Source of the DNA: Botryllus schlosseri
Lineage: Eukaryota
Assembly: GCA_051294905.1 (NCBI GenBank)
Contig: CM119372.1
Coordinates: 31,064,001-31,128,000 of the forward strand
Direction: 5' to 3'
DNA: 64,000 bases
Below, in pieces: positions 10,141 to 62,726 of this stretch; positions within the stretch are counted from its first letter, which is position 1; each line of letters opens with the position of its first letter. The notes beneath the pieces are model-generated. The model was not told the DNA's origin and ran no database searches. It worked only from the letters and a program-made list of their open reading frames with translations. The position numbers and the translations under genes are program-made.

Positions 10141-11072
10141 ATATACCAACTTAATATTGAATATTAGTACTGTCCGTGACCCAATCGTGGTCAAATGTAT
10201 GATAAATTATGTTCTATTATGTGAGTACAGCCAATGGAACTTGGTGAGAGCGAGAGTTTAGCTCAGTTTATAAGCATTTTCACCCGAAATACCAGAAGAA
10301 TAGCGATACAATGAAACGAAAGGAAGAAGTCGAAACGATCAGGCTGAGTCTCTAAAATATCAATAAAAACACACAAAATGATGCAAAGAATACATTTAAA
10401 ATGGGGATATCTGCCAAATGAAACAGGAAATAATGGTATAAAAAGCTAGAAGCAATGAAGACAGTATATCAAAACTGGTAACCGGTAAGCGTTGATTTTA
10501 TTTGTAGAAATAGACCCGAATATTCGGCTGACACTCGTCACGGCTAATCGTAAGAAACTGTATAGAATTGGGAAAAATGTAAGCCAAATATACGACAGAA
10601 AATCTTTCCCCAAAAGCTGTGAAATTCACATGACATTCTATGGCCGGCCACAGAATAGATGAAATCTCACTGTGGTTGGTGCTTCCCCCGTTCTGATATT
10701 GATTTTCTATGGTAAGATGTGCATGTGCATTGTGCAATGTGCATTGTGCAGTTGCAATCGATTGTATAGTTGGTAAATATGTTGTAAATATGCATAACTA
10801 AGATTAAATAATATGGGCGGATAATGTACTTCGTTTTTCAACCATGTTTATCGTTAAGGATAAGACTGCGATGCGAAATTATATATACAAATTTTGATCA
10901 TGTAGTTTAAGGATGTAGCGGCAGGTTAATATCTTTCGTGAATTGCCCGGATGAATTTATGACTAGTACAATACTGTACTGGAAATTTGTCTTAATTCAC
11001 TGCAGATTTGTCCGATTTACGTTTAAGCAGACTCGACTTTACCTCCATGAATACATATGCATGTTCCATCGC

Positions 11073-13832
11073 AGTAGTGATATGGGATTCGTTTCGTGCA
11101 GGCCAATCAAATTACGCCACGTCGCCCTAATTGCCACGCCTATATGATTCCCATTGCCGCACCTAACGCGTGTTTGTGAATGTGAATTTGTTTTCAATTG
11201 ATTTATATGCGTGTTTATATCTGCAATGACGCCCATTGCAACGCCTAGATATTCTAATGTTTTGTGAATTTCAATACCGATTTTCCATGTGTATTTAGCA
11301 ATATGTATTGAATAACTTGCTTCCGAGAAATAAATAACATTCATTATACGTTAGATGATTAAATTCCGAGACTTTATAATAATTTGCTTCCGAAAAATAA
11401 ACATCATCACTAATTAATTAATATAAAATGCTATTTTGAGCGCTGCGACTTGATAATATTAATCCCTACGCTTCTGATGCATGATTTTTTTTTGTGATAA
11501 GGAGCTTGGTAACATTCAGAGTCTGCAACGATTGTTTGGATATACATTATAGCAATACCCCACTAAAGTATAGGCGGTTATATTACTCTATTGGTCAGAG
11601 ATAACTCATCCGTCCATATTTATAAACTTGGTTTTATCTGAAGTAGAATTTCAGCGTCGTTATTTGTTATAAGCCGAGAAATGTACCTTCGCACAATTTT
11701 TACAGGCGGTCTCACACACTTTGCTGCGTCTGAAGTAAAATTTCAGCGTCGTTGTTTGCTATAAGCCGGGAAATTAGAGTCGCTGCTTCGCACCATTTTA
11801 CAGGCAGTCTCACACACTTTGCTGCATCTGAGCTTCCTACTAATACATGCATAATTTTTGCATGACGAGAATAGGGTAATACGGTCAATAAACGCCGGAG
11901 GCGAGTCATTTAAACCTTGTCGCTAGATAATACCGCTTTCGGCTACAACAAAGTTGCCCTGCAACAAAAAATAGAAGCCCTAATGATCATGCAGAGGAAA
12001 GTTCAATTATACATCGAATTATTCGAATAGACTATCTACATTGTGTAAGTATGAAGTGAAATAGAACGGAGTTCACGCAAAAGTTGCTATTGATCATAGA
12101 CCTAGCTTGCTTTCAGAGCTGGAAACTAAATGCATATGGAAATTTACCTAGGTTTTCCCCACACGCATCAAATGTAGGCCTACTCAAGTGTTTATGAGGT
12201 GGCGAATAGTAGGTTGTTGGCATGCAAGGACGTCACATAGAATTGTGGAGTTTTCTGTAAACTATAATCCAGTGATCTATTTTCAATCACTATATTTTTC
12301 AATAATCTAAACTAAGTACTGTTAGTATGCAAACCCTAGGAAAGTATCCTCTGATAAAAGCAGGAGTAATTTGTTATCTGTGAAATAAATAGATGGTGCG
12401 CAATATGAGCGGTGCTGCGATGACTGACAAATACTTTGAAATAATGTATAAAAGTAGCGATTTCGAACTACGTAAAAAGTTAGTCCAGCTCACGCATTTT
12501 CCATTTTCAAAAGTCAAAATACGACATTTTTTGTAAAATGAATACTAATTTTAATAAAAAATAGGAAAAAAAGAGCGAAAAATTACATTTTATCCCGGAA
12601 CGCAACAAGAAAAATCGTATGAATTTGTAAACTACTTATTCATGACATAATATTAATTCTACTTGTACACTTTTTCACATTTTATAACACTTTTAGTAGT
12701 ACTTAACAGTTTCAGTTTTAAATAAAATTCAGAATATAAACTAATCGAAAAATTCGATAACCAATTTCGCGTAGGCTATGCATACAAATGAGGAACGTTA
12801 CATCAACGCGTGTTAACTAGTTGTATTATGTAGCTTGTAATTCATGCAAGTAAGTCGGACAAATTCGTCGCATGAACACGACTCTATGGACATAAAGAAA
12901 TGAAAATTTTGTAAAGTAGATATTTTTCGGTATGCTAAATTCGGCTACGCGGTGCTAGTCTTCTTGGCCGCATGAAATAGGATGTTTTAGCTTCAACCTC
13001 AACGCATTAGCACACCGAATTTAAATATAGGCGATAAATAATATACAGTAGCTCCAATTTTAATGAAAAAATAAAAATAAAAAAGCGCGAAAAAATGCAT
13101 TTATCCTGGAACGCACCAAGAAAAACCGTATGAATTTGTAAAGTAGTTAGAAAACTACACTATTCCGCTACACTAAAGACTTTGACAATCCGGATTTTGT
13201 ATGGTGTATACTGTATACTAATTTTACATTGCGGAGTATTCAGTAAAGTTTAATCCAGTGATTCTCCATCTATTTTCAATCACGATCCTCTTATTTGTCT
13301 AGGCTTCGAACCCCACACCCAGTACGTTTTATGGGGATTAATATTTTCAGAGTCAAGTACATGGTATCGAGACTTCATGAAACTTACTTGCAAATAGTTA
13401 CTTCTACCCTAATTTAAAAGGTTTCTCAGATATCGTTACAATGGAACTGGGTTGAGCGAGCGGTTAAGGCGTTGGACTTAAGTTTCAATGATCAGGTGTT
13501 CACGTGGGTTCGAACCCCACACCCAGTACGTTTTACGGGGATTAACATTTTAGATTCAAATATAGCGTATCGAGTACTTTTTCCCAACTGTAATAAAAAC
13601 TTTTAGACTCCGGATTTTGTGTAGTAGGCTATATACTAATTTACAATACCGCATTTGTAATTCGTGCAAGTACAGGAATATCATAGTTCTTGTAACAAAG
13701 TTGTCTGCGCACAATATATGTTAATCATAAGTCCTACACATTCATGATTTCGTCCTAGTTTGAGTTTTAGAAAATATTATACCGATATCGCGGCATCTTT
13801 TAAAAACAAAACCATGATCAATGCTTGAGAGA
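11073..13832 (+). repeat. Left 2,760-bp inverted arm
   Basis: Reverse complement of 19944-22703. Paired coordinates sum to 33776 at both ends and at the mirrored ORFs (11712..11909 / 21867..22064; 11344 / 22432), so there is no net indel. About 8 substitutions seen by eye. Confidence 0.97.
13446..13528 (+). tRNA. tRNA-Leu(TAA) gene or pseudogene in the left arm
   Basis: 83 nt. Acceptor stem ACTGGGT/ACCCAGT plus discriminator A. Anticodon arm TTGGA-CTTAAGT-TTCAA. Long variable arm. T arm GTGGG-TTCGAAC-CCCAC, then a TTTT run. D-stem mispaired (AGC/GGC), so function is uncertain. Confidence 0.85.
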
Positions 13833-14501
13833 CTAGGTTTTAGACTACTTTATCGTTACTTGACAGTTTCAGTTTTAGATAAAATTTGGTAAGACTTTAA
13901 ATTTTAAAGTAGTTTGAGCTTACGTTTGTATCACCTTGACAAGTAACATTATCAGACATTAAAATGATATTATCACCTAATACAGAAGTTAACACACGTC
14001 AATGTGCTTCGGAATTCACGAGAAATTGCTTACTAAGAGAAGTATATTCTTGTATACACAATAGTGGAGAGAATCTTTAAAATGTAGTAAGCAGGCCGAT
14101 GGGTATTCGTTGAGTTGTATAAGCATAAAAACATTCCCGCGCGTCTTAGTATTAGGTGGTAGGGTTAGAAAAAGTTTAGGTTTAGGAGCGCGCGGGAATG
14201 TTTTTATGCTTATACAACTCAACGAATACCCATCGGCCTGCTTACTACATTTTAAAGATTCTCTCCACTATTGTGTATACAAGAATATACTTCTCTTAGT
14301 AAGCAATTTCTCGTGAATTCCGAAGCACATTGACGTGTGTTAACTTCTGTATTAGGTGATAATATCATTTTAATGTCTGATAATGTTACTTGTCAAGGTG
14401 ATACAAACGTAAGCTCAAACTACTTTAAAATTTAAAGTCTTACCAAATTTTATCTAAAACTGAAACTGTCAAGTAACGATAAAGTAGTCTAAAACCTAGT
14501 C
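13831..14501. repeat. Perfect palindrome: 313-bp arms (13831-14143, 14189-14501) around a 45-bp TTAGG-rich spacer
   Basis: Arms are exact reverse complements by eye (coordinate sum 28332). Spacer is TCTTAGTATTAGGTGGTAGGGTTAGAAAAAGTTTAGGTTTAGGAG. Confidence 0.97.
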
Positions 14502-15111
14502 ACTTTTTACGTGGAGGGAGTACATAGCGAAGTACTTGTACATTTTGGAGTACTCAAGTATAGATTTGGCCTGCTTGCGCTATACTTAATGAATCATTCC
14601 TGCGCAATAAACACTTGAGTAGTTGGTGCGTGTAGACAAAAACCTACTTGAGTACTTTAAAGAAGTACATATACTTCTCTGCTTAACATCTCTGAACGGT
14701 AGAAGTGGAGATATAGTCTACAAACACATTCAGTTAGTTACTTACTTTGTAATCGCTATTGCATAAGTAAAAAGTTAGTATTCAGGGGTCTATTTTTTGT
14801 TTAATACTGAAACAGTCTTGAAGTAGAAACGATCCTATATCACAAACATTCGAGTATTTTCTGTATGTAGGGAAAACCTACTTGAGTACTCAGTACTTCT
14901 CTACTCATCGTCTCTGAACGCTAGAGGTGGAGATAGTCTACAAACATTTACTTACTCACTTTGAAATCGCTACTTGTACTTCTATTCGAGAAGAATTGCT
15001 CGACGTTGAATACCATCCGAGAGCGTTTATGATGCTACTTTTACATCATAGAATATAGAGTTAAAAAGTAAATAATTTTATGATAATCTACATCATCAAG
15101 CTGAAAAGAGG

Positions 15112-18100
15112 ATGTACCATCAATTAGTACTTACGGATCATGATGAAGTGAAAATTCCTTATGGGCTCTATCACCAAACTATGACTGCATTGGACATCAC
15201 TAATATCGCGAATTCTCTTATTCGCCAATCTCACGTGTATGAGTTAGAATTTCGTCAATGTCATCTCAATGAAAACCTCGTCCAGATTCTATTGGATAAA
15301 ATTCGCGGATTTGAATATGGGGTAAACGCCTTCGCACATTCCGCTCGTAGTCATTGATCATTATAAATTCACGTTCAATTTAAGTATATGTTATCCGTAA
15401 ATATTGAGATACAGTTTTATCGTTATCGCATTGTTCTGTATTGCTAATGTGTTAAAGGCGCAAATTGGTGGTATCGCAGCGAACAATGCCCATTTGCTAC
15501 TGGTATAGGCATTAGTCTCGATAGCCTTACTAGATAGACTATAGTCAGAGTTGATCAGTGTTAGGCTGTTCATAGATCATTTAGCGTTTTATGCGTTAAG
15601 TTTTGCGCTCGTTCAGGTCGAAATAAGAAAACTCAGCGTTACAGCACACAACGACATTGAAAAACTCATCCCATTAATCTGCGAGCTGATGAAGGAGTGT
15701 GCTTCGACGGAGCTCAATCTGCAAGAAAGTGGTGGATCCGATGATTTTCTGATTATTTTGAGTAAACTTATCCAGCACCATCAGGAATTGGTGATGGAAA
15801 AAGCTAGGCGCTAATCTAGTATAGAGCCTCTCGAAGTGATATTTCCTAATACCTCATTTCCGTAGGTGAAATTGAAAAACCTCGATCTCAGCTACAGGGA
15901 GAACATTAACTTTACGCAACTCGGGACTATTATTTCGAGCGATCTAACATATTTGTCAGTTGTGAACTCGCGCTTGCAGTCAACAGATTTCATTGCTATG
16001 CAGCTCAAAAACATTAAGGTCTGCGCGATTATTGCTGGGTACAGTTGTTAATGATCACATTCTGTATGAGCGGCTGTGTAGAGATGGATGAGGGAAATTC
16101 TAGTTTAATCTTAGCCAGTGTTGGGATCAAGTCACTACCTTCGAGTCACGAGTCATCTCGAGTCATTGCAGATTTTGACTCGAGTCAAGTCAAGTCAATC
16201 GATTTTCAAAAGTGACTCGAGTCAAGTCAAGTCACTCGTTTTTTGGAGGTGACTCGAGTCAAGTCGAGTCAAGTCAAGTCAAGTCACGAGTCAAGTCACA
16301 ATTCAAGTCAAATTGAATTTTCGATGTATGAGTGATGATTCAAAGTCATTACACTTTGCTAGCTGTGTGAAAGACAGATTAATTGATCAATGCTGATCAT
16401 TTATCTTGAATCAAATAACGAATATCTAGTTAAATATACCTGCGAAAAGACGTTGTATCACTCACGCACACGTAGAACTGTTAATAAAATACGTGAGTAA
16501 CTGTACAGTCACATGCTACAATCAGTTATTATCAGCCAAAATATAGGACATAATCAACATCTATACATCCGTGAGTAAATAAACGCCCAAACTATATTTG
16601 TTTGACTTAAATCATACATAAAGGTTGGTAAAGGTGAGCACTGCGCAACGTAAGCATTGATCCGTCTAAGAAACAGAGACACATTGATATTTAGAGTAAT
16701 CTTCTACTACTACTACTACTACTAGTACTACGACAACGCAAGCTGTGATACTTTAGTTTGCGGTCTATTTATTTGTGATCTAACAATCGAGGATCAGTGT
16801 ATCGTACGATCAGTGAATGACTGGCTGCTCTCACAAAGTGACACCGGCGTATCTCGAACAATCCGAACATACACAAGATACAGTGATTTATTCGACACCG
16901 TTTACTTGATGACTTGAAATTGACTCGTAAATTTTGCTCCGAGTCACGAGTCAATGCGCATTTTTAAAGCTTCGAGTCAAGTCAAGTCAAGTCATTTTTC
17001 CAAAGTGACTCGAGTCAAGTCAAGTCATACGAAAAAGTTGACTCGAGTCTGACTCGAGTCAAGTCAAGACTCGAGTCATCCCAACACTGATCTTAGCACA
17101 TTTAGCCTATATTATGACGTGAGTGACTAAACAACATTTTTTGCTGTTATAAGTTTGAATTTTTTATGCCTGATCATTGCTGATCGTAAATTTACAGTTT
17201 CCGATATTTTTAGCTCCAATATCTTGACATTAGTTACAATCAGCTGGATGAAGAGTGTATGATCGCGCTGCCTGCCTTACTTTGTAAAGACAAAGCGGTT
17301 ACTCTTATCATGAAAGGATGTGGCCTTACACCCGAAGAAATTCGCGCTTTTGAAAGTTTTGCTGATATCGGGGTACTTGATCGTTTCTATAGTTTTGTGG
17401 ATCATTTTGAAATAAATTGGTGGATTTATAGGTTGAAAGCCTTGATCTGAGTTACAATACCGATATGGAACCGGCGGGCTTGAAAGAAATTGGATGCTTC
17501 GTGAGAAAGCATTACACGAAAACAGTTCGACTTTCAGCTTGCGAATTGGATGAAGACTCACTAATATCGTTAAATAATGGTCTCGGAATTTATGAGGTGA
17601 TCATTTGAACTAGATCTGTTTTGTTTTCTAACTGAAATATTCAATCACAGTGTAATGCTTATGTGAGTTTTAGTCATATTCAAGCATGACATTTCATTGA
17701 TCGATAGAATTTTCATCATCAATAAAGTGTTTCTGATCACGAGCTTCATTATCTTCTTCAGTGTTGAATAAGTTTTTGCTATTAGGAGTAGAAATCGCAA
17801 AAAAAAATGCTCAACCGTCGGTAAATAATATTATGACTAATCTATTACAGCCTTCGAGCCGTTTGTAGTCTCGTAAACTATCTGAACATCACACCATGTT
17901 TTAGCTGCATTCGCTGGATTTAAGTAGAAATCCTGGCATATCATCCTGCTACAAAACAGTAACTAAAGTCCTGTGCAATTCCCGTGTGGAAGAATTTAAT
18001 CTGTGTAATTGCAAGATGCTTTCCATGCAAATCAGGAATCTGAGCGAAGAGATGGGAAAACGATGCGGTACGGTAAGATCTTTCTGCTCAATCATAGATC

Positions 18101-18364
18101 CCAATGTAGCGATGTAGTTCGTTTCTTTACTTTTAAATTGATATTAATCTCGTATTATTCAATTAACAGCTAAAGGCAATCGACCTCAGTGATAGCGATA
18201 GAACGAGAATCGATGAGAAATACGTGAATTCCATTCAGAGCTTCGTGAGATATAATCCTGAATGCCGCAAAGTCAAACTAGTCTTACCGCGCTTCAGTGG
18301 GGAAGATATGAAGACCTTGAGAAAACAACTGTTCTCACCCAGTAAGGGGATATTTTCCGAATAA
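15112..18364 (+). CDS. Spliced LRR-only protein of NLR / ribonuclease-inhibitor type, about 407 aa. Exons 15112-15321, 15617-15790, 15866-16018, 17214-17372, 17432-17596, 17905-18072, 18170-18364
   Basis: Seven GT-AG, phase-0 exons of 153-210 nt join into an open frame with LxxLDLSxN repeats (LKNLDLSYRE, LQYLDISYNQL, VESLDLSYNT, LHSLDLSRNP, LKAIDLSDSD). Stop TAA at 18362-18364. An in-frame TAA at 15073 lies upstream of the ATG, and there is no NACHT exon inside the element. Confidence 0.8.
16116..17089. mobile_element. hAT-type MITE (CAGTGTTGGGAT TIR, GACTCGAGTCAAGTCAA subterminal arrays) in intron 3 of the LRR gene
   Basis: TIR CAGTGTTGGGAT / ATCCCAACACTG. 8-bp TSD ATCTTAGC at 16108-16115 and 17090-17097. 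Confidence 0.9.
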
Positions 18365-18462
18365 ATATGTATCTAGATGAGAATTAGGAGATTTCTCCTT
18401 TACTTGATAATGCTTTGCGTGAGCGCTACGGCCTGATAAGATTATAGGTAGGTAGGCCTACA

Positions 18463-18564
18463 TATTAGCAGAAGTTAAGACATGTCAATGTAACTTTATT
18501 AGCAGAAGTTAAGACATGTCAATGTAACTTTATTAGCAGAAGTTAAGACATGTCAATGTAACTT
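18463..18564. repeat. Tandem repeat, 3 x 34 bp (TATTAGCAGAAGTTAAGACATGTCAATGTAACTT)
   Basis: Identical units start at 18463, 18497 and 18531, with no spacers. Lies between the convergent 3' ends of the two cargo genes. Confidence 0.95.
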
Positions 18565-19007
18565 TCCGCATTTCTGTCTATATCGATTCGGAATCCACCA
18601 GAAATTGGTTACTATGTGAGCGAAGTATTCTTGCAAAGCAACAGCACAGGCAAATTTATATTTGTTCGGTATAGACAATATTATAGAATATGATATTTCC
18701 ATTTGGAGAGAAGACGAAATTTGATGTCGTAATGTAGGTTATTTTACACTATCGTAAATCTCTGTCGCTATAATGCTCGTAATCGAATCAAATTTGACCT
18801 GCAACGTATTCTGGGTAACCCTAACAAATTACTTACGTAGCTGTAGAAATTTGAAAAATTAAAAGTATAAAGAAGGTTTCCATATGGGGCAATCCTTCGA
18901 GTATTCTCAGAAGAAACTGTATAGATCTTACAGTAAAATGGATGCGATTAAACGATGAAGGATTTTATTCTTAAAATATTACATGAGACAAAACATGCGA
19001 ACATCCA

Positions 19008-19792
19008 TTATCTTGATAATGCCATTGCAATAGATTTCAGTCCGATTCCGACAAACACGAGTCCCTTCCAAACTTTATTGTAGTCGAAAGCGGTATTATC
19101 AAAGAATTCTACAAAGCCGTCCTGCAATAAAAATAGAAGCCTTAATGATCATACGGAGGAAAGTTATCGTGTCGTAGAATATAAATTGGGAACCGAATTA
19201 GAAGGTAAAGCTGAATTTCATCATCGAGAGGTGATATGGGCTCTGGAGAGCAGATACACTATATGTCTCATGCTAAAGATAATTTGTAAATCCTAAGCAA
19301 GGCATGTAAATCACCTACCCATCCTCCATTTCGCACTATCCACTTTCGTCTTTTGCTAGCAATGTAATTCCCAACTGTCTGTATGATAGCTTCTATATGC
19401 TCCCCGCGATGTTCAACATCGTTCTTGCGAGCAAGAATGCTACCGAGCACAAAAAGGGAGACAATCCTTCCCCAATTTTCTTTGGTATCTTTGAAAATTT
19501 CATCAGCTATCATCAGGAACATTCGCTCATCGGGTAAATATTCTTTATATTTTTTATTGACTTCAACATCACTACAGCGGAGACGTTTGGAGACTGCGTT
19601 TAGGACTGTTCGATATCGCTCGAACATTTCATCCCCAACTTGACGTAAGGTTCTCTCTGCTTTCGTATTTACCTTAACGCATGAGCCGTCGAGTTCGTAC
19701 ATGATAAAATTCCTGGTCAAGGAATATGCTTCGGATATAATTTCATCCTTTTCTTCAGTGATCGAAGGTGCTGATACTCGTGATAATTCCAT
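19008..19792 (-). CDS. Bcl-2 family apoptosis regulator, 195 aa. Exons 19792-19319 and 19121-19008
   Basis: BH4-like LTRNFIMYEL, BH3 LRQVGDEM, BH1 EIFKDTKENWGRIVSLFVLG. BH2 WIVRNGGW|DGFVEFF is split by a 197-bp phase-0 GT-AG intron at the family-conserved position after GGW. Hydrophobic tail VWKGLVFVGIGLKSIAMALSR*. No stops or frameshifts. Confidence 0.93.
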
Positions 19793-19943
19793 GGTTTGAG
19801 GAGAATAGCGAGTCAAAGCTTATTTCGAGATCTAAGCTACTTTGAAAATGAGGATCCTAGGATTTGCTTAATTTTCATCTATATCGTACAATGCGTTTTC
19901 GCGTTCCAGAATGACTTATGTCAATGAAAAATAGCAAAAATGA

Positions 19944-22703
19944 TCTCTCAAGCATTGATCATGGTTTTGTTTTTAAAAGATGCCGCGATGTCGGTATAAT
20001 ATTTTCTAAAACTCAAACTAGGACGAAATCATGAATGTGTAGGACTTATGATTAACATATATTGTGCGCAGACAACTTTGTTACAAGAACTATGATATTC
20101 CTGTACTTGCACGAATTACAAATGCGGTATTGTAAATTAGTATATAGCCTACTACACAAAATCCGGAGTCTAAAAGTTTTTATTACAGTTGAGAAAAAGT
20201 ACTCGATACGCTATATTTGAATCTAAAATGTTAATCCCCGTAAAACGTACTGGGTGTGGGGTTCGAACCCACGTGAACACCTGATCATTGAAACTTAAGT
20301 CCAACGCCTTAACCGCTCGCTCAACCCAGTTCCATTGTAACGATATCTGAGAAACCTTTTAAATTAGGGTAGAAGTAACTATTTGCAAGTAAGTTTCATG
20401 AAGTCTCGATACCATGTACTTGACTCTGAAAATATTAATCCCCATAAAACGTACTGGGTGTGGGGTTCGAAGCCTAGACAAATAAGAGGATCGTGATTGA
20501 AAATAGATGGAGAATCACTGGATTAAACTTTACTGAATACTCCGCAATGTAAAATTAGTATACAGTATACACCATACAAAATCCGGATTGTCAAAGTCTT
20601 TAGTGTAGCGGAATAGTGTAGTTTTCTAACTACTTTACAAATTCATACGGTTTTTCTTGGTGCGTTCCAGGATAAATGCATTTTTTCGCGCTTTTTTATT
20701 TTTATTTTTTCATTAAAATTGGAGCTACTGTATATTATTTATCGCCTATATTTAAATTCGGTGTGCTAATGCGTTGAGGTTGAAGCTAAAACATCATATT
20801 TCATGCGGCCAAGAAGACTAGCACCGCGTAGCCGAATTTAGCATACCGAAAAATATCTACTTTACAAAATTTTCATTTCTTTATGTCCATAGAGTCGTGT
20901 TCATGCGACGAATTTGTCCGACTTACTTGCATGAATTACAAGCTACATAATACAACTAGTTAACACGCGTTGATGTAACGTTCCTCATTTGTATGCATAG
21001 CCTACGCGAAATTGGTTATAGAATTTTTCGATTAGTTTATATTCTGAATTTTATTTAAAACTGAAACTGTTAAGTACTACTAAAAGTGTTATAAAATGTG
21101 AAAAAGTGTACAAGTAGAATTAATATTATGTCATGAATAAGTAGTTTACAAATTCATACGATTTTTCTTGTTGCGTTCCGGGATAAAATGTAATTTTTCG
21201 CTCTTTTTTTCCTATTTTTTATTAAAATTAGTATTCATTTTACAAAAAATGTCGTGTTTTGACTTTTGAAAATGGAAAATGCGTGAGCTGGACTAACTTT
21301 TTACGTAGTTCGAAATCGCTACTTTTATACATTATTTCAAAGTATTTGTCAGTCATCGCAGCACCGCTCATATTGCGCACCATCTATTTATTTCACAGAT
21401 AACAAATTACTCCTGCTTTTATCAGAGGATACTTTCCTAGGGTTTGCATACTAACAGTACTTAGTTTAGATTATTGAAAAATATAGTGATTGAAAATAGA
21501 TCACTGGATTATAGTTTACAGAAAACTCCACAATTCTATGTGACGTCCTTGCATGCCAACAACCTACTATTCGCCACCTCATAAACACTTGAGTAGGCCT
21601 ACATTTGATGCGTGTGGGGAAAACCTAGGTAAATTTCCATATGCATTTAGTTTCCAGCTCTGAAAGCAAGCTAGGTCTATGATCAATAGCAACTTTTGCG
21701 TGAACTCCGTTCTATTTCACTTCATACTTACACAATGTAGATAGTCTATTCGAATAATTCGATGTATAATTGAACTTTCCTCTGCATGATCATTAGGGCT
21801 TCTATTTTTTGTTGCAGGGCAACTTTGTTGTAGCCGAAAGCGGTATTATCTAGCGACAAGGTTTAAATGACTCGCCTCCGGCGTTTATTGACCGTATTAC
21901 CCTATTCTCGTCATGCAAAAATTATGCATGTATTAGTAGGAAGCTCAGATGCAGCAAAGTGTGTGAGACTGCCTGTAAAATGGTGCGAAGCAGCGACTCT
22001 AATTTCCCGGCTTATAGCAAACAACGACGCTGAAATTTTACTTCAGACGCAGCAAAGTGTGTGAGACCGCCTGTAAAAATTGTGCGAAGGTACATTTCTC
22101 GGCTTATAACAAATAACGACGCTGAAATTCTACTTCAGATAAAACCAAGTTTATAAATATGGACGGATGAGTTATCTCTGACCAATAGAGTAATATAACC
22201 GCCTATACTTTAGTGGGGTATTGCTATAATGTATATCCAAACAATCGTTGCAGACTCTGAATGTTACCAAGCTCCTTATCACAAAAAAAAATCATGCATC
22301 AGAAGCGTAGGGATTAATATTATCAAGTCGCAGCGCTCAAAATAGCATTTTATATTAATTAATTAGTGATGATGTTTATTTTTCGGAAGCAAATTATTAT
22401 AAAGTCTCGGAATTTAATCATCTAACGTATAATGAATGTTATTTATTTCTCGGAAGCAAGTTATTCAATACATATTGCTAAATACACATGGAAAATCGGT
22501 ATTGAAATTCACAAAACATTAGAATATCTAGGCGTTGCAATGGGCGTCATTGCAGATATAAACACGCATATAAATCAATTGAAAACAAATTCACATTCAC
22601 AAACACGTGTTAGGTGCGGCAATGGGCGTCATATAGGCGTGGCAATTAGGGCGACGTGGCGTAATTTGATTGGCCTGCACGAAACGAATCCCATATCACT
22701 ACT
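19944..22703 (-). repeat. Right 2,760-bp inverted arm
   Basis: Reverse complement of 11073-13832. Starts TCTCTCAAGCATTGATC (19944) and ends CATATCACTACT. Confidence 0.97.
20248..20330 (-). tRNA. tRNA-Leu(TAA) gene or pseudogene in the right arm (mirror copy)
   Basis: Reverse complement of 13446-13528. Confidence 0.85.
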
Positions 22704-25700
22704 CATCGCGATACTTAATCGTTCAATATGCGGTCATTTTACCCGCGTTGGTGACCACTGATGTAGGACGTACAAACCCTTAGTAAAGATTGCACGTGAA
22801 CATCACTTACATTGGAACGCCGCTTTGTCTTGCTCATGTTTGTGATCGGCAATGTTTTCTCACAAAATGCATGTAGACCCGGGCCGCAAGCTCCATTACA
22901 TGTAAGACAGAAACTGTCTGCGGGCGGCCCCAAAAACTGGCTGAGCTGACGCTTCAAGTGGTTAAAATAAATCATTATAAGCCATCAAAAAGAAATACTA
23001 GGAAGACTTTTGCAGCTCACTCACCGACAATTCCAGTTTGGCGCGCATCTGGCACGTGGTCAAATCCATGTCGCACCTGGATTCGTATCAACGCCGGCCT
23101 AAGGACATGCTGCTTGATGGTGCAGAGCGGCAGTTCGGCTCGTAAATAATAGTATTATTCGTGTGACATGAACGTGACTTAATATTGTATCATCACGTTC
23201 CCAACATTCTCACATCCACCAGCTCTTCAGCTAACTCTAGCTGCGTAAGCGTAGGGCATATAAAAATCGTATGCGCCAGGCGAGTTCAGGCTCGAAGTAG
23301 AAGAATATATCGGTATCTCAGTATAAACAGTAATTTGTCATTGCAAACGGCATGATTTTGTTACAATGCATTGAATGGTGACGAAACCGTGGTACGTAGG
23401 CTACACTTCATTGATCATGAGTCGTATGACTGATATAGTAGGCTATACGAAAGAGTGCAGTTTGTAAGATTCTAAACCTCTACTAAGAATAACGAGAACC
23501 ACAATAACATGAAGGGTTATTTGGAACATTTTCAAAATACGATTTTTGTATCACAATTTCGAAGGTCGTTACAGATACAATAAACCGGAATCAACACAAC
23601 TCTCACTTGGTCGTGTGTCTCGTTACTCTCTGTAGAGGCTTTCGATGGCGATGGAAGTGGAAAGTTACGGTTATACTGGTGTATGTGAACAAAGATACCG
23701 GGCGGGGTCTATGCTTTTCGCCACGTACCCGACCGCGTAATATTGTAATCCAGCCCATCAGCCTAATTCAAGGGCAGATGATTTTTTCGCTTCTTCACCT
23801 AAGCCAAACATGGGTCACGCACGCACACAGGCTTATGTTGACGAGTAACAAGGCAACGAGGTCTGTATCAGAGCAATGCCGTTACTGTTGGCTGTAAGTA
23901 GGGGATGCTGGGCAAAATCGGGTACGCTAGTGATTCGAATATTATGCTTCGACTCGAATAGACTGTACAATCGTGTCTTTTCTATAACTCTGGTCATTAT
24001 ACGCCCCTTGATGTTGCACTCTACTAGCATTAGACCAAAATGTTTCGTCAAAGCAATTTAAAGCAAATATATCAAACATCACAACTATAGGGTTGTGATT
24101 AAAACAAGAATCTATTTAAAACAAACTTGTTCAAAACAACGCCCTTTTTTGAAACATGTTTAAAAAAATCTAATCCATGACGTCTCGCATTGGTATTCAC
24201 AATTGAAAATACAGGTTAAATATAGCTCCTTTGACGAAATAGGCTTCCAACCCCTGTCATATACGGACCAAAAATATCTTTAACCAGGACTACATCGTCG
24301 TGCAGCATTTGTACGGTCGGCGCCTCGGCGGTCTTCATGATCAGAGCATTCATTCCGTACAAATGATCTATATCTGCTTACTGTTAGCTGTTGAACCCAC
24401 TATTTCGAGCAAACTTCCCATATCGTGTATACATCGGCTATATCGGGTGGCAATCGTCGTCCTTAGGCTCATACAGCATGTTTTTTGAAAGTATTTACAC
24501 AATTATAGCATAATTAAACAACTTAGAAAAACATTTTTTGAACGCCTTTGTTTAAAACACTGCTTAAAACATGTTTTAAGCAATTCGTTTTAAACAACCA
24601 TTTGTTTTAAATGCGACCCTAATCACAACGAAGCAAATGCTACTTCTCCCTCGCGAGCACAGTGAAAAGTCGATAAACAATACCTCTAATATCTTCTATT
24701 GCAGCGGTTCGAAATTCGGCGGGCGCGCCTTCCTTGGAGGGGGAACGGGGCATGGAAACATCAGGAGGGCGCGAAGCCGTGGTTAACTGTAAAAAAATTT
24801 CGCGGTCTGCGCGATTTATCCCCAGTTCATAGCTTTTGCTTTGTCCCATCCACAGTCATAACCTTCCATGCCATCATACTATCTGTTGTGATTGCTAGCA
24901 TTCTGGCTACATATAATGATGTGACGATAATGAGGCGCGAGATATTTTACTATCATAAAGGATGGCGTGTCTGAAAAAGTTTGAGAACCACTACTCAATT
25001 AAAATATTTTGCAGTCCGAAACAGGATGTCAAATGATTTGTAATTCTTTATAATTTATGCTAATTCATGAAATAAGTTTGGGCCCCCTTCGAGCTCGGCC
25101 CCCCTTAATTGGGAGATTTGAGGTGGGGCAGTTACGGCCCTGACTATAGGACTACCAATTATGCTGCTTTTAGCCGGCTAAGCGGTATGCATCTCGGCGT
25201 ATATTCAACCGTGAGTCACGTGTTGCACATCTAGCTATCATAGGGTTACCATACGTCCTCTTTTAAGATGATATGTCCTCTTTTTTGATTTTTTTAAAAG
25301 TGACCACGGAGGACGCCCAAATGTCTTCTTTTTCGGGATTTTGTTTATTTTTTGAGGATTTTGGTTACATAAAGGGCCAAATTCGACTAATATGCATTAA
25401 GTCAGCACTGTAGGAACGCTACGGCGGCTATTTCGGGAGCTGGACCGGAAAGTTAACGTTTTTTTTTCAGTCAACCACCTGTTAATGTGAAAGAAAAACT
25501 GTATTTTCCGGGAGTTGAGCCTCTTTTTCTTTTTCAGTCAAGCGACCACGAAGTGGGAAAAATTTACCATTTTTTCAGGATTTTCCTCCGGTTTTGAAAG
25601 TTTTAAATATCTATTTATATCTATAGCTACTGCTCGTTCAACTGGATGGTTAGGGCACATTGCATTGAAACAACAGTGACGTAACGTTAGCAGTCTATAC

Positions 25701-43900: not shown

Positions 43901-46900
43901 TAGCCAGACACACCGTAAATCCACGTTCGTATAGCCATGAGAGATGAGATGGATATTCCAGCCTAGAATCATGTCTTCTGAAATTGTGAACTCATCAGCT
44001 GACGTAATTTAACACGCCAACGAACTGCAGCGTCATTATTTGTCGCCTCAACATATGCAATGTAGGCCTATATACATAAGTTACAGATGTGCGGTATTTA
44101 ATCAGGTGGCACTATATATCCTTGATTTGGGTCTAGAAAAGGGGCCTTACCTAGTTTCCGCACACAGCATCCAACATTTTAAACATTTTATGGATTTACA
44201 CTTGACACCATTGCTAATAAATGATAGAATATATTCAATATAATATGCATAAAGATATTGCACTCATTGAGAAAAGACTCACATGAACTTGTGTGTGGCC
44301 CAGTGGTCTCAGACTTTCTGTAATAATGTTCATCATCTCGTCGTTCATATTACAATTGCAAAAGTTGAATTCGTCGAGGCCGTTGGCACCTTTGCTCGTT
44401 GCTGCTAACGTTCCAACAATATGAGCTTCGTCACGGCGCAATGGGACGTTGGAGGCATTGATGACGGAGAGACCTTTCATCAGTTCGTCGTCGCAATTTG
44501 ATTCGTAAATTGCGGTGTACAATTCCATGCGATTATATCTGTTGTTGAACCCATCCCGTGTCTTCTCAATTTGCGAGCGAATCGATGCGGCAAAAATTTC
44601 TCTTTTGCCAGACTGATCTGAGAAGACGAAGATCCTTTAATACATTAGAACTATTAGAATTGGATGTAGCAAATATGTGGTCAACATGAAGTGTCATGCT
44701 TGACTTAAACTTGATAAGACTAGCGCAGCAATGACTCTGGATCTGGTCGCGATCAATATGCAGCCTTATACGGAGAACAACGGCAATTTCGACGAATATA
44801 CATTGTGATTTCGACGTTTTTGCCAGATATGGACTTTTTAGTCGCTTGTCTTCAAACCTGACATGTTATATGCTGGGTAGTGAGCATATTTGTAACAGGA
44901 TTTCTGGCTCGTGTTCTAAATGGCGAGTGGTAAACACCGAGTGTCAAAATAGAGAGTCATTCGAAGTAACACAAGCTATAACTTGACTCCCACTTTAACC
45001 CAACATAACCTAGCTTTATGCTAACGCAATATAATCTGACCTTATCTGTAGCCGCAACCACATAAAAACGTAGCCCATCCCCTCAGCCCCACCGAACCCC
45101 TCAACCCCATTCGTATAGCCGTCACACTAGCTAACCTGACACCGAACCATAACAAATCGATCCGACCTTATCCCTAACCCTCGCCCTAACCCAAACAATC
45201 CCTAACACTAACTCGACATTGTCAATAACTCTGTATTTTGAATGACTCTGTATTATGAATAACGTATTAGTAGTATGACACACCTTGTTTTGACAGTCGC
45301 TATATCGAAGCCTGGCTATTTTGAATTCACGCTATTTTGTACTCGCAATTTGGAAGTCGCTATTTTGGCGGGTCGCGAGGATTTCTACATCTCTTATATA
45401 CAATACACACGAACACACTCTCATCAAAAATATCTGTTGCGGCCCAAATATGCCTCAACAGAGATTTGCATATAGGTATTACTCCGGTACCATATCTATC
45501 GAGTTATTGGTTCAGGTGAGATGTCATGGTAAACATGAAGGCTATACAACGTATCACTTCGGGCTTAGGCATTGACCCGACCATATGTCATGCCTCCAAC
45601 GAGACAAAATGACCATGTCGGCTACCAAATGAGGAGTGACGTATGAGGTATACCTTTTATGAATACCTGGCCATCGGGAATTGATGCCAGATAGAGAACG
45701 CCAGTAACAAATCTTCGAACTACAGACCATCGTTCCTCGTGGAGCTCTCTGTTGTTGAAGTCGGTGAATTCCGTGAACTTCATTTCCGCTATATAGCTCG
45801 CTGCCAAAAATTCTTGCATGCTTTGATGGCAGAAGAAGAACGTGAAATCGCCTTCCATCAGATGACTGCTGACAAGATTAGTATCCGGAACTTTCGTCAT
45901 CAAATCGTGGACTTCATTCGCGGAGATTTGATAATTCTTCAAATCGCTTTCGTAGAATATGACCCTCCTTTCTTTCATGCCCTGAAACGCCATACCCTTC
46001 AATTTCTTGATAATCCCAGAAATTTGCCTCCTATTTCTTATATTTTCCACACTGCGGAATGATAATACGATCCTGTTGTACAGTTCTGTAACTGTCGCTG
46101 GAAGTGGTTTTTCCGGGTCACTTCCCATCACAATCGCCGTTAGAATCAGGAACACCGGTATTGTGATAAGATTGAGTAATCTTGGTGACATGGTTCGGAT
46201 ATTATTCCACAGATGCGCACCGTTCTCGCCTACTAGAAAAGTGAACAAAGACCGCGCGTCTTTTAATTCAAGTCCAGTAAGCGTGATAATATCGCGTGGT
46301 CGTGATTTCGCGGGTAGCTCTGATATCTTAAACTCACGTGAAGTCACGACGATTCTAGTGCTGCGAAGGACATTACGAGCCAAGATGTTGTAAATGATAG
46401 TTGGGGTATCTGCTTTACTGTAAAGGTCCATTTTACGAAGTTCGCTATCGTCAAAATCCCACCCGGCTTGGTCAAGGCCGTCTAGGATTAGAAGCACTTC
46501 GGATTGATGGTTTACTAACCATTCGAAAGTGTTAGCTATGTCAGATTTCTTTCCGAAAAGTCCGCCAAATAAAAATTTGGATAATGTCATAGACCTTTTC
46601 TTTATATCCTTCAATTCAATGTAGCGCACCATTTTAAATTTAATCGACTGGGTCGGATTGACGTCGCTTTTTGCAAGCGGAATTCCCTGAGCCGCTTGAG
46701 CTAATCTGCGTGTAAGAGTGGTTTTACCCGACCCCGCGGATGCGATTATACACGTCACATCGACTGCATTAGATAACTCCGATCTTTTCCTGTTCGATAT
46801 TGAGACGATTAGGTCATTAAATTTTATCACACTCCCTCTATTCTCGTCTTGGCCGTAGAACCCCGCCTCCTCTGTCAGTTGATTTCGGATTGATTTAACC

Positions 46901-47155
46901 GTTGACCCTTCGTAGATTGCGGGATCTGACGTGCGATTTACGCCGTGACGACCTTTAAAGTAATCCGCGAAGTCTACTCTTCGCATTTTGGGATGAACTA
47001 CAAGACTGGGTTCATTGAGCTGTTCGGGCCTGTAGTCATCAAGGATGCTGACAGTCGTATTTTCCTTGGTGCGGTTGTTGACGGTCTCTACCAGTTTCTC
47101 ATAGTTGATATCTGCGACAAAATTTGACTCATTCATACGAGAAAAGGTGATATCT
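40982..47155 (-). CDS. NACHT-LRR (NLR-like) gene, possibly damaged at the 3' end. NACHT exon about 47155-45654; further candidate exons 44617-44283, 43577-43473, 43304-43143, 41956-41870, 41603-41525, 41274-41194, 41131-40982
   Basis: Walker A IIASAGSGKTTL, Walker B VLLILDGLDQ, sensor IVVTSR, IPVFL motif, winged-helix FCHQSMQEFLAASY. Phase-1 join AAAG|GT (45654) to CAG|AT (44617) is in frame with LRR-like FNFCNCNMNDE and VENVDLRQNSL. The 5' end and distal exons are less certain. Confidence 0.85.
44980..45215. repeat. Degenerate (CCTAAC/TAACCC)-like low-complexity tract in an NLR intron, flanked by short inverted repeats
   Basis: C/A-skewed TAACC, CCTAAC motifs. Flanks AATAGAGAGTCATTC (about 44948) and GAATGACTCTGTATT (about 45240). 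Confidence 0.55.
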
Positions 47156-47163
47156 CTGTAGTA

Positions 47164-48008
47164 CAGCGGGGCATGGACCGTAGCAGGATTGGATATCCGG
47201 CCCAACCGGCAGGATCTTCTCATTTATGGCCGGGGCCGGATTAGAGCCGGATCAGCACTTCTCAGGGATGAGCGGATTTGAAATTTCAATGTCCTAATTC
47301 AATCCAAATCCGAAGCTTCAAATCCTAATCCTAGTCCTAATCCATAACTTTAGTATATTAAACTCCCAATCCTAATCCGATATAATCGTAGAATTCCTTT
47401 TAGAACTTAGCCTACATCTTTTGCCTATAATTCCCTAAAAAGAAAGAAAACGCATATTGAGTGCCAAAGTACATGAAGTAACTTTGGTAGGACGAAAATC
47501 TTTTTCGCCATTCACCACAGGACATCAATCGTACTGAACATCGGTATATGCAATCCAAATCCTAATCCATTTTCAAAAACATCTGAAATCCTTTCCAATC
47601 CTAATCCGGCAAAATTTCACAAATCCGGTTTTCCCAGATCCTAATCATAATCCATGGTCAACTCGGGCACTTTTCCTGATACGGCCGGAATCGTATCGGA
47701 ACTAGATCTCTACTTTCACCTTGGAATCAATAGTTACATTAAACAGCATTTCATGTAAATAAACCGCATGTTAGGACAAAGTTGCCATCATTACTTCAGA
47801 TAAGGGTTAGGCTTGATCTTTGAATTTTTAAATTTCTGTTTGTATTGTTTCAATCAATATTCAATACCAACCTGTGATTATGGCCGGAGTTGTCGGACCT
47901 GACCACGGATATTTCTAGGATCCGGCCTAGGAGTCGGACCGCAGTCGGACCAGGGAATTAAAAAACAGGATCGGAATCGGATCAGAGAATTTGTCAATCC
48001 GTCCGGCG
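47164..48008. mobile_element. CCGGA-rich MITE abutting the 5' edge of the NACHT exon, with a nested AATCC-type MITE (about 47263-47666)
   Basis: Similar to about 51590-52008 (GCATGGACCG...GAGAATTTGTC). Boundaries approximate. Confidence 0.65.
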
Positions 48009-59712: not shown

Positions 59713-62048
59713 CCATGTAGCCATACAATACACTTGTCTGGTATAGCCATGAGATTTACATTGGTTTTAGGCGGAAAAGAACTTCTTATTATTCGACAAT
59801 TCATGTAAAAACACTCATCTTTCAAAAATGTTATTTTTATAGTTGAATGAATTTCAATCGATTGAGACATTCAAAATTTGACAAATTTGATTGCAATAGA
59901 ACTAAAAGGAAACTCGGCAATTGCATGCGTATGGGTTCCCGAAATGAGTATCCAATGAAAAAACAAAAGCTATTAGCCAAGGAAAGCGCTGTTCTGATCA
60001 TCAGTGAATTTCGGAAACTCGAAAGTAACGATACGTTTCACATTGAAAAATTTAGCAGTTAATATATTATGTTTCAACTAACTACCAGTGATGTGTGGAT
60101 TCAATGCGCGACCACGCAATATCGTTCCATTGTTGCAGACCGAATCTGGGGTGGATACCTATTGGCGATGTCTGTAATGTCGACGGTGTCAGCATCTATA
60201 CTTCGGCAATATCACCTTAGCGATGTGATCCATACATTTCGGCCATACTATTGATTAAATTATTCATATATTTTAGGGATCTCATATTGTACTTTGACGG
60301 TGAATAAGTTTGTTAAATTCTAAAATATTATATTTATATACTAACACGATGCATGTGTCCTCTATGCATATTGTGTTTATCTCATAATTTTAACCTATTA
60401 TGCTTATCCTCTATACACCAAGTATAATAACATTTCTAGTCACTTATTTATAAACGTGACTTTTTCCTGCCAGACGGGAATTGCTGTAATAGTAAATGAC
60501 ATTTTCGCGACGTGTGTGAAATGTCAGTGAACAAGGTCGGCTCACTTTTAATTGGACAATTTCATCCTGTCAAATAGGACGTACTTGGAAAGACAATGAG
60601 TATACCTGTTGATGCCGAGGCTCGTGACGCCATCAAAATCCTGGAAATTGGTCGTCAGCACATTTGAGTTTGAGACCCCTGATCTAACCCTTGCAATAGC
60701 TCTAGTTCTCAACTTCCTATTCCCGACAAAAGCATTACGTCACCACAACGCTGATGGTACGCAATAAGCTGTACTGTCTGGCTACACTTCACCGCAAAGC
60801 AATCGATCTTCAATGACTGTCGCTGACATCCAACCTGCTACCGCGGCCAGCGCAACCTTTATAAAGACGTAATATTTATAAAAATATAGTAACTCGGTGG
60901 TATGACTCAAAACTTTAGGTCATAATAAACGGACGTAAAACAGTTGACTCAAGGTAAAACGTTTATTTAAATCGTTTTCACAGTATTGTAAAAAAAACAA
61001 GTGTCACAAACCAAAAGCTATGCAATAGTGAATCCCAACTATCACGGGATGAGCTAACGGGAATTGACAAATAATGATGGCTCCGAGAGCAGACTGTACC
61101 TGTAAGGGTGCGCTAATAATCGACGAGCAATTAACGTAGACGCGAAAAATTAACCTGATATCAGTTGAGCCCCGTTGCTGAAAATTCACGTGAAGAACCG
61201 AATTCTTAACTATATACTGAGATTATGATTGCCTACAAGCACGAATTCGTGCATAATCTATATATAACCCTACTTCAAGTCCATATTTATGGCGACTTGT
61301 TTTTGTTTAATCAAAGCATGCTTTCAAATCGAACGGATTATCTTCGCGTCCTAGTATCAATGCAGTAAATCAGATGCTACGGAGTCGTACAGGCTTTATT
61401 CATTGCATCATTACAGAATATGTCATCGGGAAGTTACATTCACTTCGGATCAACTTACTGGCTCATACTATTTCAATAGGGAATATTATGCACACTCTGA
61501 CATCGCCGCAGAAAAGTATAGGCTACGCTACATACGTTACCGTGTTATATTGCGTATTGCTATATTGGCTTCCAGGAAATAGCAGCCATTCCCGTACTGG
61601 TTGAATTCCCGAATTCTCCTTTGTGTGCATGACAGTAGTGTATAAGGATGATTTTATGGCCCCAATCAGAGCATGCCACGTCACAAGCTATGTTACGCAT
61701 CACAAACTTTTAAAAACGGCACTTTCACGGAATCGACCGACTACCTCTGACATCTGAACTAGGAACAATACCACTACACTACCGAGCCTAACCTAGCGCC
61801 CTACGCTTATTTGAGACTATAAATAAAAGTGTCATGAAATTTTCAAAGGGGTGTGCGAAATTCGCGGGTACCTACGAGGAATGAAATAACCACTGACACC
61901 TTCGATACCATCGAAGCCGTTTGTTTACGTAGTAACCGTAGAAAATTTCGCTGCACCATTTAAAAAAATTCAAAAACTGCACTTTCACAGACTTGAACCG
62001 ACGTGAATATGGCGGCGCTTCAGAATCGCGTTCGAAACATTTCGTAAA

Positions 62049-62688: not shown

Positions 62689-62726
62689 TGTTTACAAGAC
62701 GAGAGACTAAAATAACGCACAATTTT

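Follow-up and report, generated by a model that had tools for sequence, protein, structure and literature searches.

A probable mirror-image Polinton/Maverick derivative with Bcl-2 and leucine-rich repeat genes in the genome of Botryllus schlosseri

A stretch of 64,000 nucleotides (nt) of Botryllus schlosseri DNA (positions 31064001-31128000 of contig CM119372.1, hereafter C2; the whole stretch is referred to as the window) contains at 11073-22703 a unit that is probably a decayed copy of a family of large, non-autonomous, mirror-image (palindromic) Polinton/Maverick derivatives. The unit, 11.6 kb long, has its ends in common with Polintons and went into its site as one piece; sister copies are present elsewhere in the 495.5-Mb assembly (219 contigs) that was searched, and its genes are common and conserved. 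The coding content was given in a preliminary description of this DNA as one Bcl-2-family gene and one multi-exon leucine-rich repeat (LRR) gene, and both assignments hold (PF00452 with an E-value of 1.6e-21 for the former and a profile of LRR exons for the latter).

The unit is bordered by two inverted arms of 2,760 nt, located at 11073-13832 (plus strand) and 19944-22703 (minus strand), which are separated by 6,111 nt and differ by 8 mismatches (99.71% identity). It starts with AGTAGTG and finishes with CACTACT, and immediately outside of both ends lie the left and right copies of the target-site duplication CATCGC (11067-11072 and 22704-22709), identical in 6 of 6 positions, an agreement expected at random in 1 of 4096 cases. 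Alignment of the arms and comparison of the flanks thereby confirmed the inverted arms, the AGTAGT...ACTACT ends and the duplication named in the preliminary description. The first ~75 nt of the left arm hold an array of shared terminal motifs, AGTAGTG...CCAATCA...GCCACGTC...TAATTGCCACGCC; no open reading frame (ORF) of this arm has a Pfam match, and Tandem Repeats Finder (TRF) detected no tandem array in the arms. A second symmetric structure, which had been missed before, abuts the inner end of the left arm: a perfect central palindrome (13828-14504) with 316-nt arms at 13828-14143 and 14189-14504 and a 45-nt loop at 14144-14188. Among the stop-to-stop ORFs of the unit, the single long frame (19268-19819, minus strand) is the Bcl-2 domain, and the plus strand presents a run of short frames, each opening right after a ...tag or ...cag acceptor. 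No ORF for the protein-primed polymerase (pPolB) was found in 11073-22703 by ORF listing and Pfam, and neither an rve integrase nor a capsid protein, a packaging ATPase or an adenain-like protease was found among the ORFs of the unit.

The first 300 nt of the unit and its whole arm match many places in the genome, typically as plus/minus pairs that are 11-26 kb apart. The terminal pattern AGTAGT-N18-30-CCAATC-N4-10-CCACGTC has 301 forward and 298 reverse matches genome-wide, compared to 0 and 0 for the reversed pattern that served as a control on the same genome. These numbers correspond to roughly 300 elements, which are spread with paired ends over all large contigs. Forty-three elements could be paired from the first 100 listed end places, with lengths of 3,981-34,258 bp and a median of 15,746 bp; 28 of them fall between 12 and 21 kb, 18 between 14 and 18 kb, and seven enclose a pPolB match. 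The ~22 nt between AGTAGT and CCAATC are strongly variable among elements and identical at both ends of one element and, judged by this sequence pattern, resemble an address of the individual element beside conserved motifs.

Nine other copies were compared in sequence with the window copy. All nine open with AGTAGT(G/A) and all have different flanks. Their flanking 6-mers agree in 6 of 6 positions in two copies (CCTAGG, TGGCCA), in 5 of 6 in five copies and in 4 of 6 in one; for L048/49, the alignment stops short of a readable outer end and gives no duplication score. Counting the window copy, the 6-bp duplication is perfect in 3 of 10 copies. The two arms of a sister copy are 99.5-100% identical over 2.9-8.3 kb in seven of the nine, 98.5% identical in L048/49 and 96.6% identical over 680 nt in L043/45. 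Most of these relatives are whole-element palindromes of about 15-17 kb: L033/34 (15,502 bp) consists of 7,631-nt arms around a 240-nt center, with its symmetry axis exactly at the geometric center, and L046/47 (14,899 bp) consists of 7,025-nt arms around an 850-nt center. The two halves of C17:1263558-1271748 mirror each other around 1267653, and the relative on C7 (L035/36, 18,633 bp) has arms of at least 8,308 nt with an LRR gene in each arm and a truncated Bcl-2 gene. Close relatives present the order end, Bcl-2 (pointing inward), LRR (pointing outward), followed by LRR, Bcl-2 and the other end. Sequence homologous to window positions 13828-14593 is located at or near the center of six of the nine copies (L031, L033, L039, L044, L046 and L048), and the palindrome is therefore a property of the spreading unit, with no separate origin at each site. 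Two further arrangements were seen among the copies. The region C10:21036694-21057670 contains four Bcl-2 and four LRR copies in alternating orientation within 21 kb, which, by their layout, suggests either two palindromic elements placed back to back or a single duplicated one. In addition, a Penelope-like retroelement is nested in a palindromic copy on C12 at 17.33M (L043:4242-7572), whose ORFs match reverse transcriptase (E 2.9e-5) and GIY-YIG (E 3.4e-4), both below the Pfam cut-offs.

Whole-length mirror symmetry is thus found in the sister copies, and the window copy retains 2,760 + 316 nt of it. Its right half (14189-22703) is complete, of its left half 2,760 nt at the outer and 316 nt at the inner end are present, and the mirror of 14505-19943 (5.4 kb) is absent; the junction between 13832 and 13833 shows a microhomology of 2 nt (4 of 5). 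We infer that a full palindrome of ~17.07 kb with its center at ~14166 gave rise to the window copy, and that a 5.4-kb deletion took the left Bcl-2 and LRR genes. The preliminary description had set the arms beside the terminal inverted repeats (TIRs) of Polintons, normally of roughly 0.1-1 kb. Judged from the alignments, the 2.76-kb arms are the remnant of a whole-element palindrome after this deletion and not oversized TIRs.

The link to Polintons can be followed within the same genome. A third end of the unit's type, likewise missed before, lies in the window at 61634 (three pattern matches in the window compared to 0.16 expected), and it opens with AGTAGTG as the left end of a separate Polinton on the plus strand (C2:31125634-31144828, 19,195 bp; 61628-64000 of the window). 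This element has 327-nt TIRs that are 99% identical and the duplication CATGAC on both flanks (6 of 6; left copy at 61628-61633), its first gene is an intronless ORF for an IAP with three BIR domains (62727-63998, minus strand, Pfam E 1.8e-42), and it encloses matches to the capsid-like protein, the integrase (one stop) and pPolB (one stop). It has AGTAGTG, CCAATCAGAG and GCCACGTCAC in common with the unit. The array AGTAGT(G/A)...CCAATC...GCCACGTC...TAATTGCCACGCC is likewise common to the unit and to elements bearing pPolB and integrase. Additionally, the end of an integrase-, ATPase- and Bcl-2-bearing element on C9 is 74-84% identical to the unit's end over 43-73 nt, and its subterminal ~80 nt are nearly identical to the palindromic copy L041. 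The preliminary description had proposed a mobile, non-autonomous element with Polinton-type ends, to be recognized by repeated termini, by further copies with other flanks and other 6-bp duplications, and by Polintons with the same termini. All of these were found, the last as elements that enclose pPolB, integrase and capsid-like matches and share the terminal motifs. Other TIR superfamilies, i.e. hAT, MULE, PIF and piggyBac (duplications of 8, 9, 3 and 4 bp, respectively), were dropped as a source because the unit's ends are shared with Polintons.

The protein repertoire of these Polintons was assessed at the only genome-wide Pfam match to an A32 ATPase, which leads to a dense block of ORFs on one strand (C11:4508000-4525999, L050/L051). 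Encoded in this block are the ATPase (E 1.1e-9), the core of an rve integrase (PF00665, E 3.9e-12), which is closely preceded by one in-frame stop and followed by a chromodomain, a 542-aa ORF that is grouped with DUF5906/VapE-type helicases (protein atlas score 0.93), ORFs of 431 and 556 aa in one frame with one stop between them and, apart from these, a 431-aa capsid-like protein. The 556-aa ORF is the pPolB on the basis of relatives at E 1e-115 with 38-40% identity, 103 of 120 listed relatives bearing PF03175 (atlas score 0.95). As an observation of its own, the same locus also bears a BIR protein, a caspase-domain protein (E 4.2e-13), a ubiquitin-conjugating enzyme (E 1.6e-46) and the VapE/DUF5906-like helicase, and it assembles a whole cell-death and ubiquitin gene set on one element. 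Genome-wide, at least 78 pPolB matches were scored of 261 candidates, many in open frames of ~1,290-1,310 aa, together with at least 150 integrase matches of 242 candidates and at least 97 matches to the capsid-like protein of 272 candidates; the three sets fall into parallel subfamilies. A scan of the whole genome with PF03175 returned no match and its controls stayed silent, which marks the scan as insensitive, since pPolB is present by other searches. Three Polinton ORFs had no match among PDB sequences. L050/51 and the window unit share no DNA similarity, and in tblastx the unit's arm had only marginal short matches (E ~3e-4) to the C9 end region and L050, located near the conserved end, with no BIR or ORF197 remnant in the arm.

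The Bcl-2-family gene of the unit (19008-19792, minus strand) is predicted to encode 195 aa. Its ORF at 19268-19819 matches PF00452 with 77 bits against a cut-off of 31.4, and the fold-domain test was positive, with BH1, BH2 and BH3 motifs present. As for the LRR gene, its intron was predicted from GT-AG sites and reading phase alone. Exon 1 extends from the ATG at 19792 to 19319 (158 aa) and ends in ...RNGGW at the predicted donor TGG/GTAGGT; the predicted GT..AG intron (19318-19122, 197 nt) lies directly after the GGW of BH2 and has the acceptor ...ttattgcag/GAC, and exon 2 (19121-19008) adds 37 aa with DGFVEFF... and a hydrophobic tail, 80% conserved in the C9 element. Cellular Bcl-2 genes typically have an intron right behind the tryptophan of BH2. 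Among relatives with solved structures, the order from the best is Mcl-1 (E 4.5e-10), Bcl2L10, Bcl-2, Bax and Bcl-xL, with Bax close behind Mcl-1. A set of 5.8 billion proteins yielded a single match, a mollusc 'bcl-2-like protein 2' with 32% identity, and any capture of Bcl-2 is therefore old and predates the family.

Within the genome, at least 150 Bcl-2 matches were scored of 428 candidates, with 74-99% amino-acid identity, and 136 of 150 are free of stops. About 50 inward-facing pairs were counted, in which a plus copy comes first and a minus copy follows 3-16 kb downstream. Exon 1 is open from Met to GGW in all 14 copies compared from different subfamilies, with one one-codon indel, and the motifs LRQVGDEM, NWGRIV and NGGW are kept across these copies apart from NLGR and NWGQ, once each. 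The ratio of non-synonymous to synonymous substitution rates (dN/dS, Nei-Gojobori) of exon 1 has a median of 0.36 and a range of 0.16-0.78 in 77 pairs with dS >0.1, and for the most divergent pairs (dS 0.33-0.40) it is 0.28-0.34 with bootstrap intervals below 1. The Bcl-2 gene evolves under constraint.

Bcl-2 copies that are 76-80% identical to that of the unit also lie beside integrase and capsid-like matches at eight loci (C9:10.20M, C8:25.66M, C8:24.82M, C13:17.20M, C1:8.33M, C7:23.86M, C3:4.18M and C4:15.49M). None of these loci is among the 78 scored pPolB matches of 261 candidates, which is no proof of absence. In the C9 element (L052), the end reads ...GGCGTGGCAATTAAGG..GACGTGGCC..GATTGG..CACTACT and is followed inward by ORF197-like and BIR-like remnants, Bcl-2, the tail of a 347-aa ORF and the ATPase; its Bcl-2 gene begins 3.5 kb from the end, points inward and is 84.6% identical to that of the unit over 677 nt. 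By this gene order, Bcl-2 occupies the position that the helicase and polymerase have in a complete element. The preliminary description had seen the peculiarity of the unit in host genes replacing viral ones. This does not distinguish the unit, as Bcl-2 and LRR genes are family-wide and Bcl-2 accompanies integrase and capsid-like genes at the eight loci. Judged by its distribution, Bcl-2 is a gene of the lineage and a family-wide cargo, not a private capture.

The second gene is a predicted LRR-only gene of 407 aa on the plus strand (15112-18364), assembled from seven phase-0 exons at 15112-15321, 15617-15790, 15866-16018, 17214-17372, 17432-17596, 17905-18072 and 18170-18364, with all predicted introns being GT-AG. 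Single exons give weak LRR matches in Pfam (E 0.009 and 0.05). Five exons of 51-64 aa each start with LxxLDLS, and a profile built from these five matched 264 proteins; among the top 20, LRR_6 occurs in 12, NACHT in 6 and the NLRC4 helical domain alone in one. The LRR_6 and NACHT matches identify the repeats as NLR/RNI type, and in NLRs one two-repeat LRR unit per phase-0 exon is the rule. None of the scanned ORFs of the unit has a NACHT domain, and the gene model contains LRR-type exons only. One LRR exon had no match in the set of 5.8 billion proteins ('longer' lengths). The gene recurs in at least 18 other loci with 92-99% identity, mostly as mirror pairs. In comparison to the C7 copy, all six exons that align in full are open; the copies differ by 9 synonymous and 12 non-synonymous substitutions, few events in all, which correspond to a dN/dS of 0.35.

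One intron of the LRR gene contains a nested non-coding repeat (16116-17089, 974 bp), also missed before, with a 12-nt TIR, CAGTGTTGGGAT, and an 8-bp duplication, ATCTTAGC. No other LRR copy contains this repeat, which occurs alone elsewhere in the genome at a very high copy number. Its read depth is far above the rest of the stretch; sequencing runs of DNA contain it in extreme abundance, and it is found among RNA reads too. By these sequence features, it resembles a hAT-type miniature inverted-repeat transposable element (MITE), and it is a foreign insertion in the intron.

Expression was assessed in one single-cell library, of which ~3% of the reads were sampled; no RNA run was listed among the sequencing runs that contain the stretch. 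RNA depth is ~6 over the 3' region of Bcl-2, on the Bcl-2 strand. Two 3' parts of the LRR gene are covered to a depth of ~5 on the strand of that gene. This low depth on both gene strands shows weak transcription of family members in the sampled library.

A route to such a family can be proposed from these features. The Bcl-2-bearing end of a Polinton variant lacking helicase and pPolB would have been copied back on itself during protein-primed replication, and the copy-back product would correspond to a snap-back defective genome with two identical ends that reaches nearly the length of its helper by mirror doubling. The median length of the satellites is ~15.7 kb, compared to 17.5-19.2 kb for the helpers. 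Given two identical ends and a near-helper length, a helper could replicate and perhaps package the satellite. Integration in trans, which like splicing and packaging we infer from sequence, would be carried out by the integrase of cognate Polintons, as suggested by the shared ends and duplications. The likeness of the arms would be upheld by arm-to-arm gene conversion or by hairpin intermediates. The Mcl-1-like Bcl-2 protein, if it acts as its sequence implies, would delay the death of the cell that supports replication of both helper and satellite, and, more speculatively, the NACHT-less NLR-type LRR protein may blunt NLR sensing as a decoy. Afterwards, the window copy would have lost the left Bcl-2 and LRR genes through the 5.4-kb deletion, and the MITE would have landed in the LRR intron. 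A more far-reaching version of this proposal, in which a Polinton snap-back genome turned into a self-sustaining germline satellite that is matched to its helper via the ~22-nt stretch and carries a selected Mcl-1-like blocker and an LRR decoy, is put forward only tentatively. If it is true, an animal virus-satellite system is written into this genome ~300 times.

Several observations weigh against the interpretation of the unit as a member of a palindromic, helper-dependent Polinton family. The duplications around the sister copies show 7 mismatches in 54 positions, compared to differences of 0.04-0.5% between most arms, which could reflect either homogenization after insertion (gene conversion) or short-read polishing of the assembly. 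Six of the nine sister copies lack both the Bcl-2 and the LRR gene, and Pfam matched none of the 53 ORFs (75 aa or longer) of five sister copies that lack Bcl-2; as gene-less palindromes have spread too, the two genes are dispensable for mobility. The dN/dS below 1 could also stem from selection at the level of the host. The middle of L035/36 on C7 holds a 100-N assembly gap, and its center was set aside as evidence. On the side of the Polintons, the element at 61634 has short motifs alone in common with the unit's ends and not the whole arm. The 431-aa capsid-like protein of L050/L051 has a weak match to a Pfam double-jelly-roll family (E 0.014), a single-sequence AlphaFold model of the capsid-like protein reaches a pLDDT of 31, a Pfam search of this locus identified no protease, and its ends were not found, even when 1.7 kb upstream were included. 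Among the reads, 13 of 13 RNA reads at position 19036 bear the base of other copies and not that of the window copy. No spliced joint was found among 15 joints listed of 84, the RNA reads being few and derived from other copies. Finally, none of the read contigs aligned to the stretch was seen to bridge an empty site, and no polymorphic insertion was seen.

Other origins of the structure were weighed against this interpretation. A decidedly unlikely one is the 'Pack-Polinton' reading of the preliminary description, according to which this unit alone took up host gene fragments in the manner of a Pack-MULE, the genes having no role for the element. The host-like GT-AG introns of both genes, with the one of Bcl-2 right after the GGW of BH2, would fit such a capture, as would a fragment-like LRR gene without NACHT and a unit without any viral ORF. 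The genome nevertheless has Bcl-2 in 150 or more places and the LRR gene at no fewer than 18 other loci, Bcl-2 also resides in elements that encode integrase and capsid-like protein, its dN/dS is ~0.36 with exon 1 open in 14 of 14 copies, and the 32% identity of the nearest protein dates any capture before the family. For the window copy, these findings contradict the reading. What stands of that reading is the non-autonomous Polinton derivative, without the one-off capture of host genes. Alternatively, the mirror modules could be repeated deletion products of larger composite Polintons bearing Bcl-2 and LRR genes, with no satellite lineage, which is rather unlikely. Its model case is C1:20425964-20460221, where one matching end pair 34.3 kb apart holds a Bcl-2/LRR mirror module together with capsid-like, integrase and pPolB matches, and where a relaxed pattern, too, revealed no inner ends; by its sequence matches, this region may be a complete Polinton with the module or a fusion. 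It is the single composite seen, compared to ~50 Bcl-2 pairs, and it is known from the coordinates of matches alone. Furthermore, the palindromic copies have a conserved center in common and form subfamilies with their own divergence (74-99% amino-acid identity, dS up to 0.4), which argues against recurrent shedding.

An immobile cluster of host genes, duplicated locally in inverted orientation and flanked by two old solo Polinton ends, is very improbable. NLR and LRR genes are common in the genome and the window includes a host NLR exon (NACHT E 2.2e-17) at a distance of 23 kb, but a perfect 6-bp duplication surrounds the whole unit, the same ends, genes and order recur at many unlinked loci with other flanks, and tblastx of the element's LRR exons against the rest of the window, including the host NLR gene, detected no similarity. 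It is hardly credible, finally, that the inverted structure is an assembly artifact from a hairpin or a chimeric long read. Long-read assembly is known to fail at near-perfect palindromes, one sister copy contains the 100-N gap, and none of the listed read contigs aligned to the stretch spans it entirely. Against this, the arms differ at 8 sites, both junctions bear the same 6-bp duplication beside unique flanks, ~300 paired-end elements occur on all large contigs, and independent sequencing runs contain large parts of the stretch. The palindromic Polinton derivative accordingly remains the preferred reading.

Among known systems, Polintons themselves are described, in the available part of one account, as elements of 13-25 kb with TIRs of 100-1,500 bp and target-site duplications of 5-8 bp (PMC10748475). 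The unit agrees with them in its 6-bp duplication, its AG... ends and the terminal motifs that it has in common with elements bearing pPolB, rve-chromodomain integrase, A32 ATPase and capsid-like genes. Unlike Polintons, it encodes no hallmark protein, its sole genes are host-like and predicted to be spliced, and its arms measure 2.76 kb, and 7-8.3 kb in sister copies, i.e. a whole-element palindrome. Adintoviruses are animal Polinton-like viruses in which, according to the available excerpt of Starrett et al. (2021), Bcl2 and IAP homologs 'were also observed' (PMC8502044). The Polinton-type elements of the present genome similarly carry IAP, BIR, caspase-domain and Bcl-2 proteins. As far as that excerpt goes, the adintovirus homologs are accessory genes in complete viral genomes (PMC8502044), whereas in the window family Bcl-2 replaces the replication module, is then the sole recognizable gene of the viral lineage and is present in at least 150 copies. 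Since an adintovirus Bcl2 has been published, a Polinton-borne Bcl-2 is not new.

Mirror symmetry of whole genomes has precedents among defective viruses. Daniell is said to have found long inverted repeats in some adenovirus incomplete particles in 1976. Incomplete particles of adenovirus contain left-end DNA, as stated in the accessible part of one source (PMC5033970), and snap-back or copy-back defective genomes are characterized, in the excerpt at hand, as highly symmetric palindromes that derive from one genome end and depend on a helper (PMC13506859). The window family resembles them in its whole-length mirror symmetry, and helper dependence and an origin by strand switching are proposed for it here. 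Known snap-back genomes are transient products of infection, mostly of RNA viruses, without coding capacity; the window family, in contrast, is integrated in the germline in hundreds of copies with a conserved unpaired center and selected genes.

Cargo genes and long arms are also known from other mobile elements. Pack-MULEs capture gene fragments, which are not under selection. Nematode Mavericks have been reported with cargo genes (bioRxiv 10.1101/2022.07.12.499685, available in part). Both are virus-like or TIR elements that carry non-transposition genes, as the window unit does, although the nematode cargo, to the extent covered by that source, rides otherwise complete elements, whereas here a gutted palindrome holds conserved cargo. 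Foldback transposons have arms of short tandem repeats and 9-bp duplications. These elements and large gene-converting palindromes have very long arms that are more similar than the age of the insertion suggests, a trait in common with the unit. Unlike Foldback arms, those of the unit consist of complex sequence with genes, without tandem subrepeats, and come with a 6-bp duplication and Polinton-type ends.

In the literature on Bcl-2 with Polintons, on non-autonomous or palindromic Polintons and on cnidarian Bcl-2 expansion in connection with transposable elements, no such family was found; Repbase and Dfam were not part of this search. A palindromic, helper-dependent satellite family with an amplified Bcl-2 gene appears new. 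The preliminary description had regarded the combination of features as undescribed, which applies to the palindromic satellite family within the literature searched and does not apply to Bcl-2 with IAP, already published for adintoviruses according to the excerpt of PMC8502044.

Polintons are thought to be ancestral to many eukaryotic DNA viruses, and, to our knowledge, their replication and helper-dependent offshoots are almost unknown experimentally. Hundreds of end-matched mirror derivatives would provide a natural record of how protein-primed linear genomes make and propagate defective forms. They also indicate that selection can maintain a cell-death regulator on a mobile element without any enzyme of its own, and that apoptosis control, and possibly NLR evasion, may be a currency between elements and an invertebrate host. 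For genome annotation, well over 100 Bcl-2 and dozens of LRR genes are at risk of being miscounted as expansions of host families.

Two further features complete the window. The LRR and Bcl-2 genes converge, and a perfect tandem repeat of three 34-bp units (18463-18565) lies between their 3' ends. Outside of the unit, an open frame of 533 aa on the minus strand (45622-47223) contains the NACHT domain mentioned above together with NOD2 winged-helix domains, and it is probably, from its domain content, a large exon of a host NLR gene.

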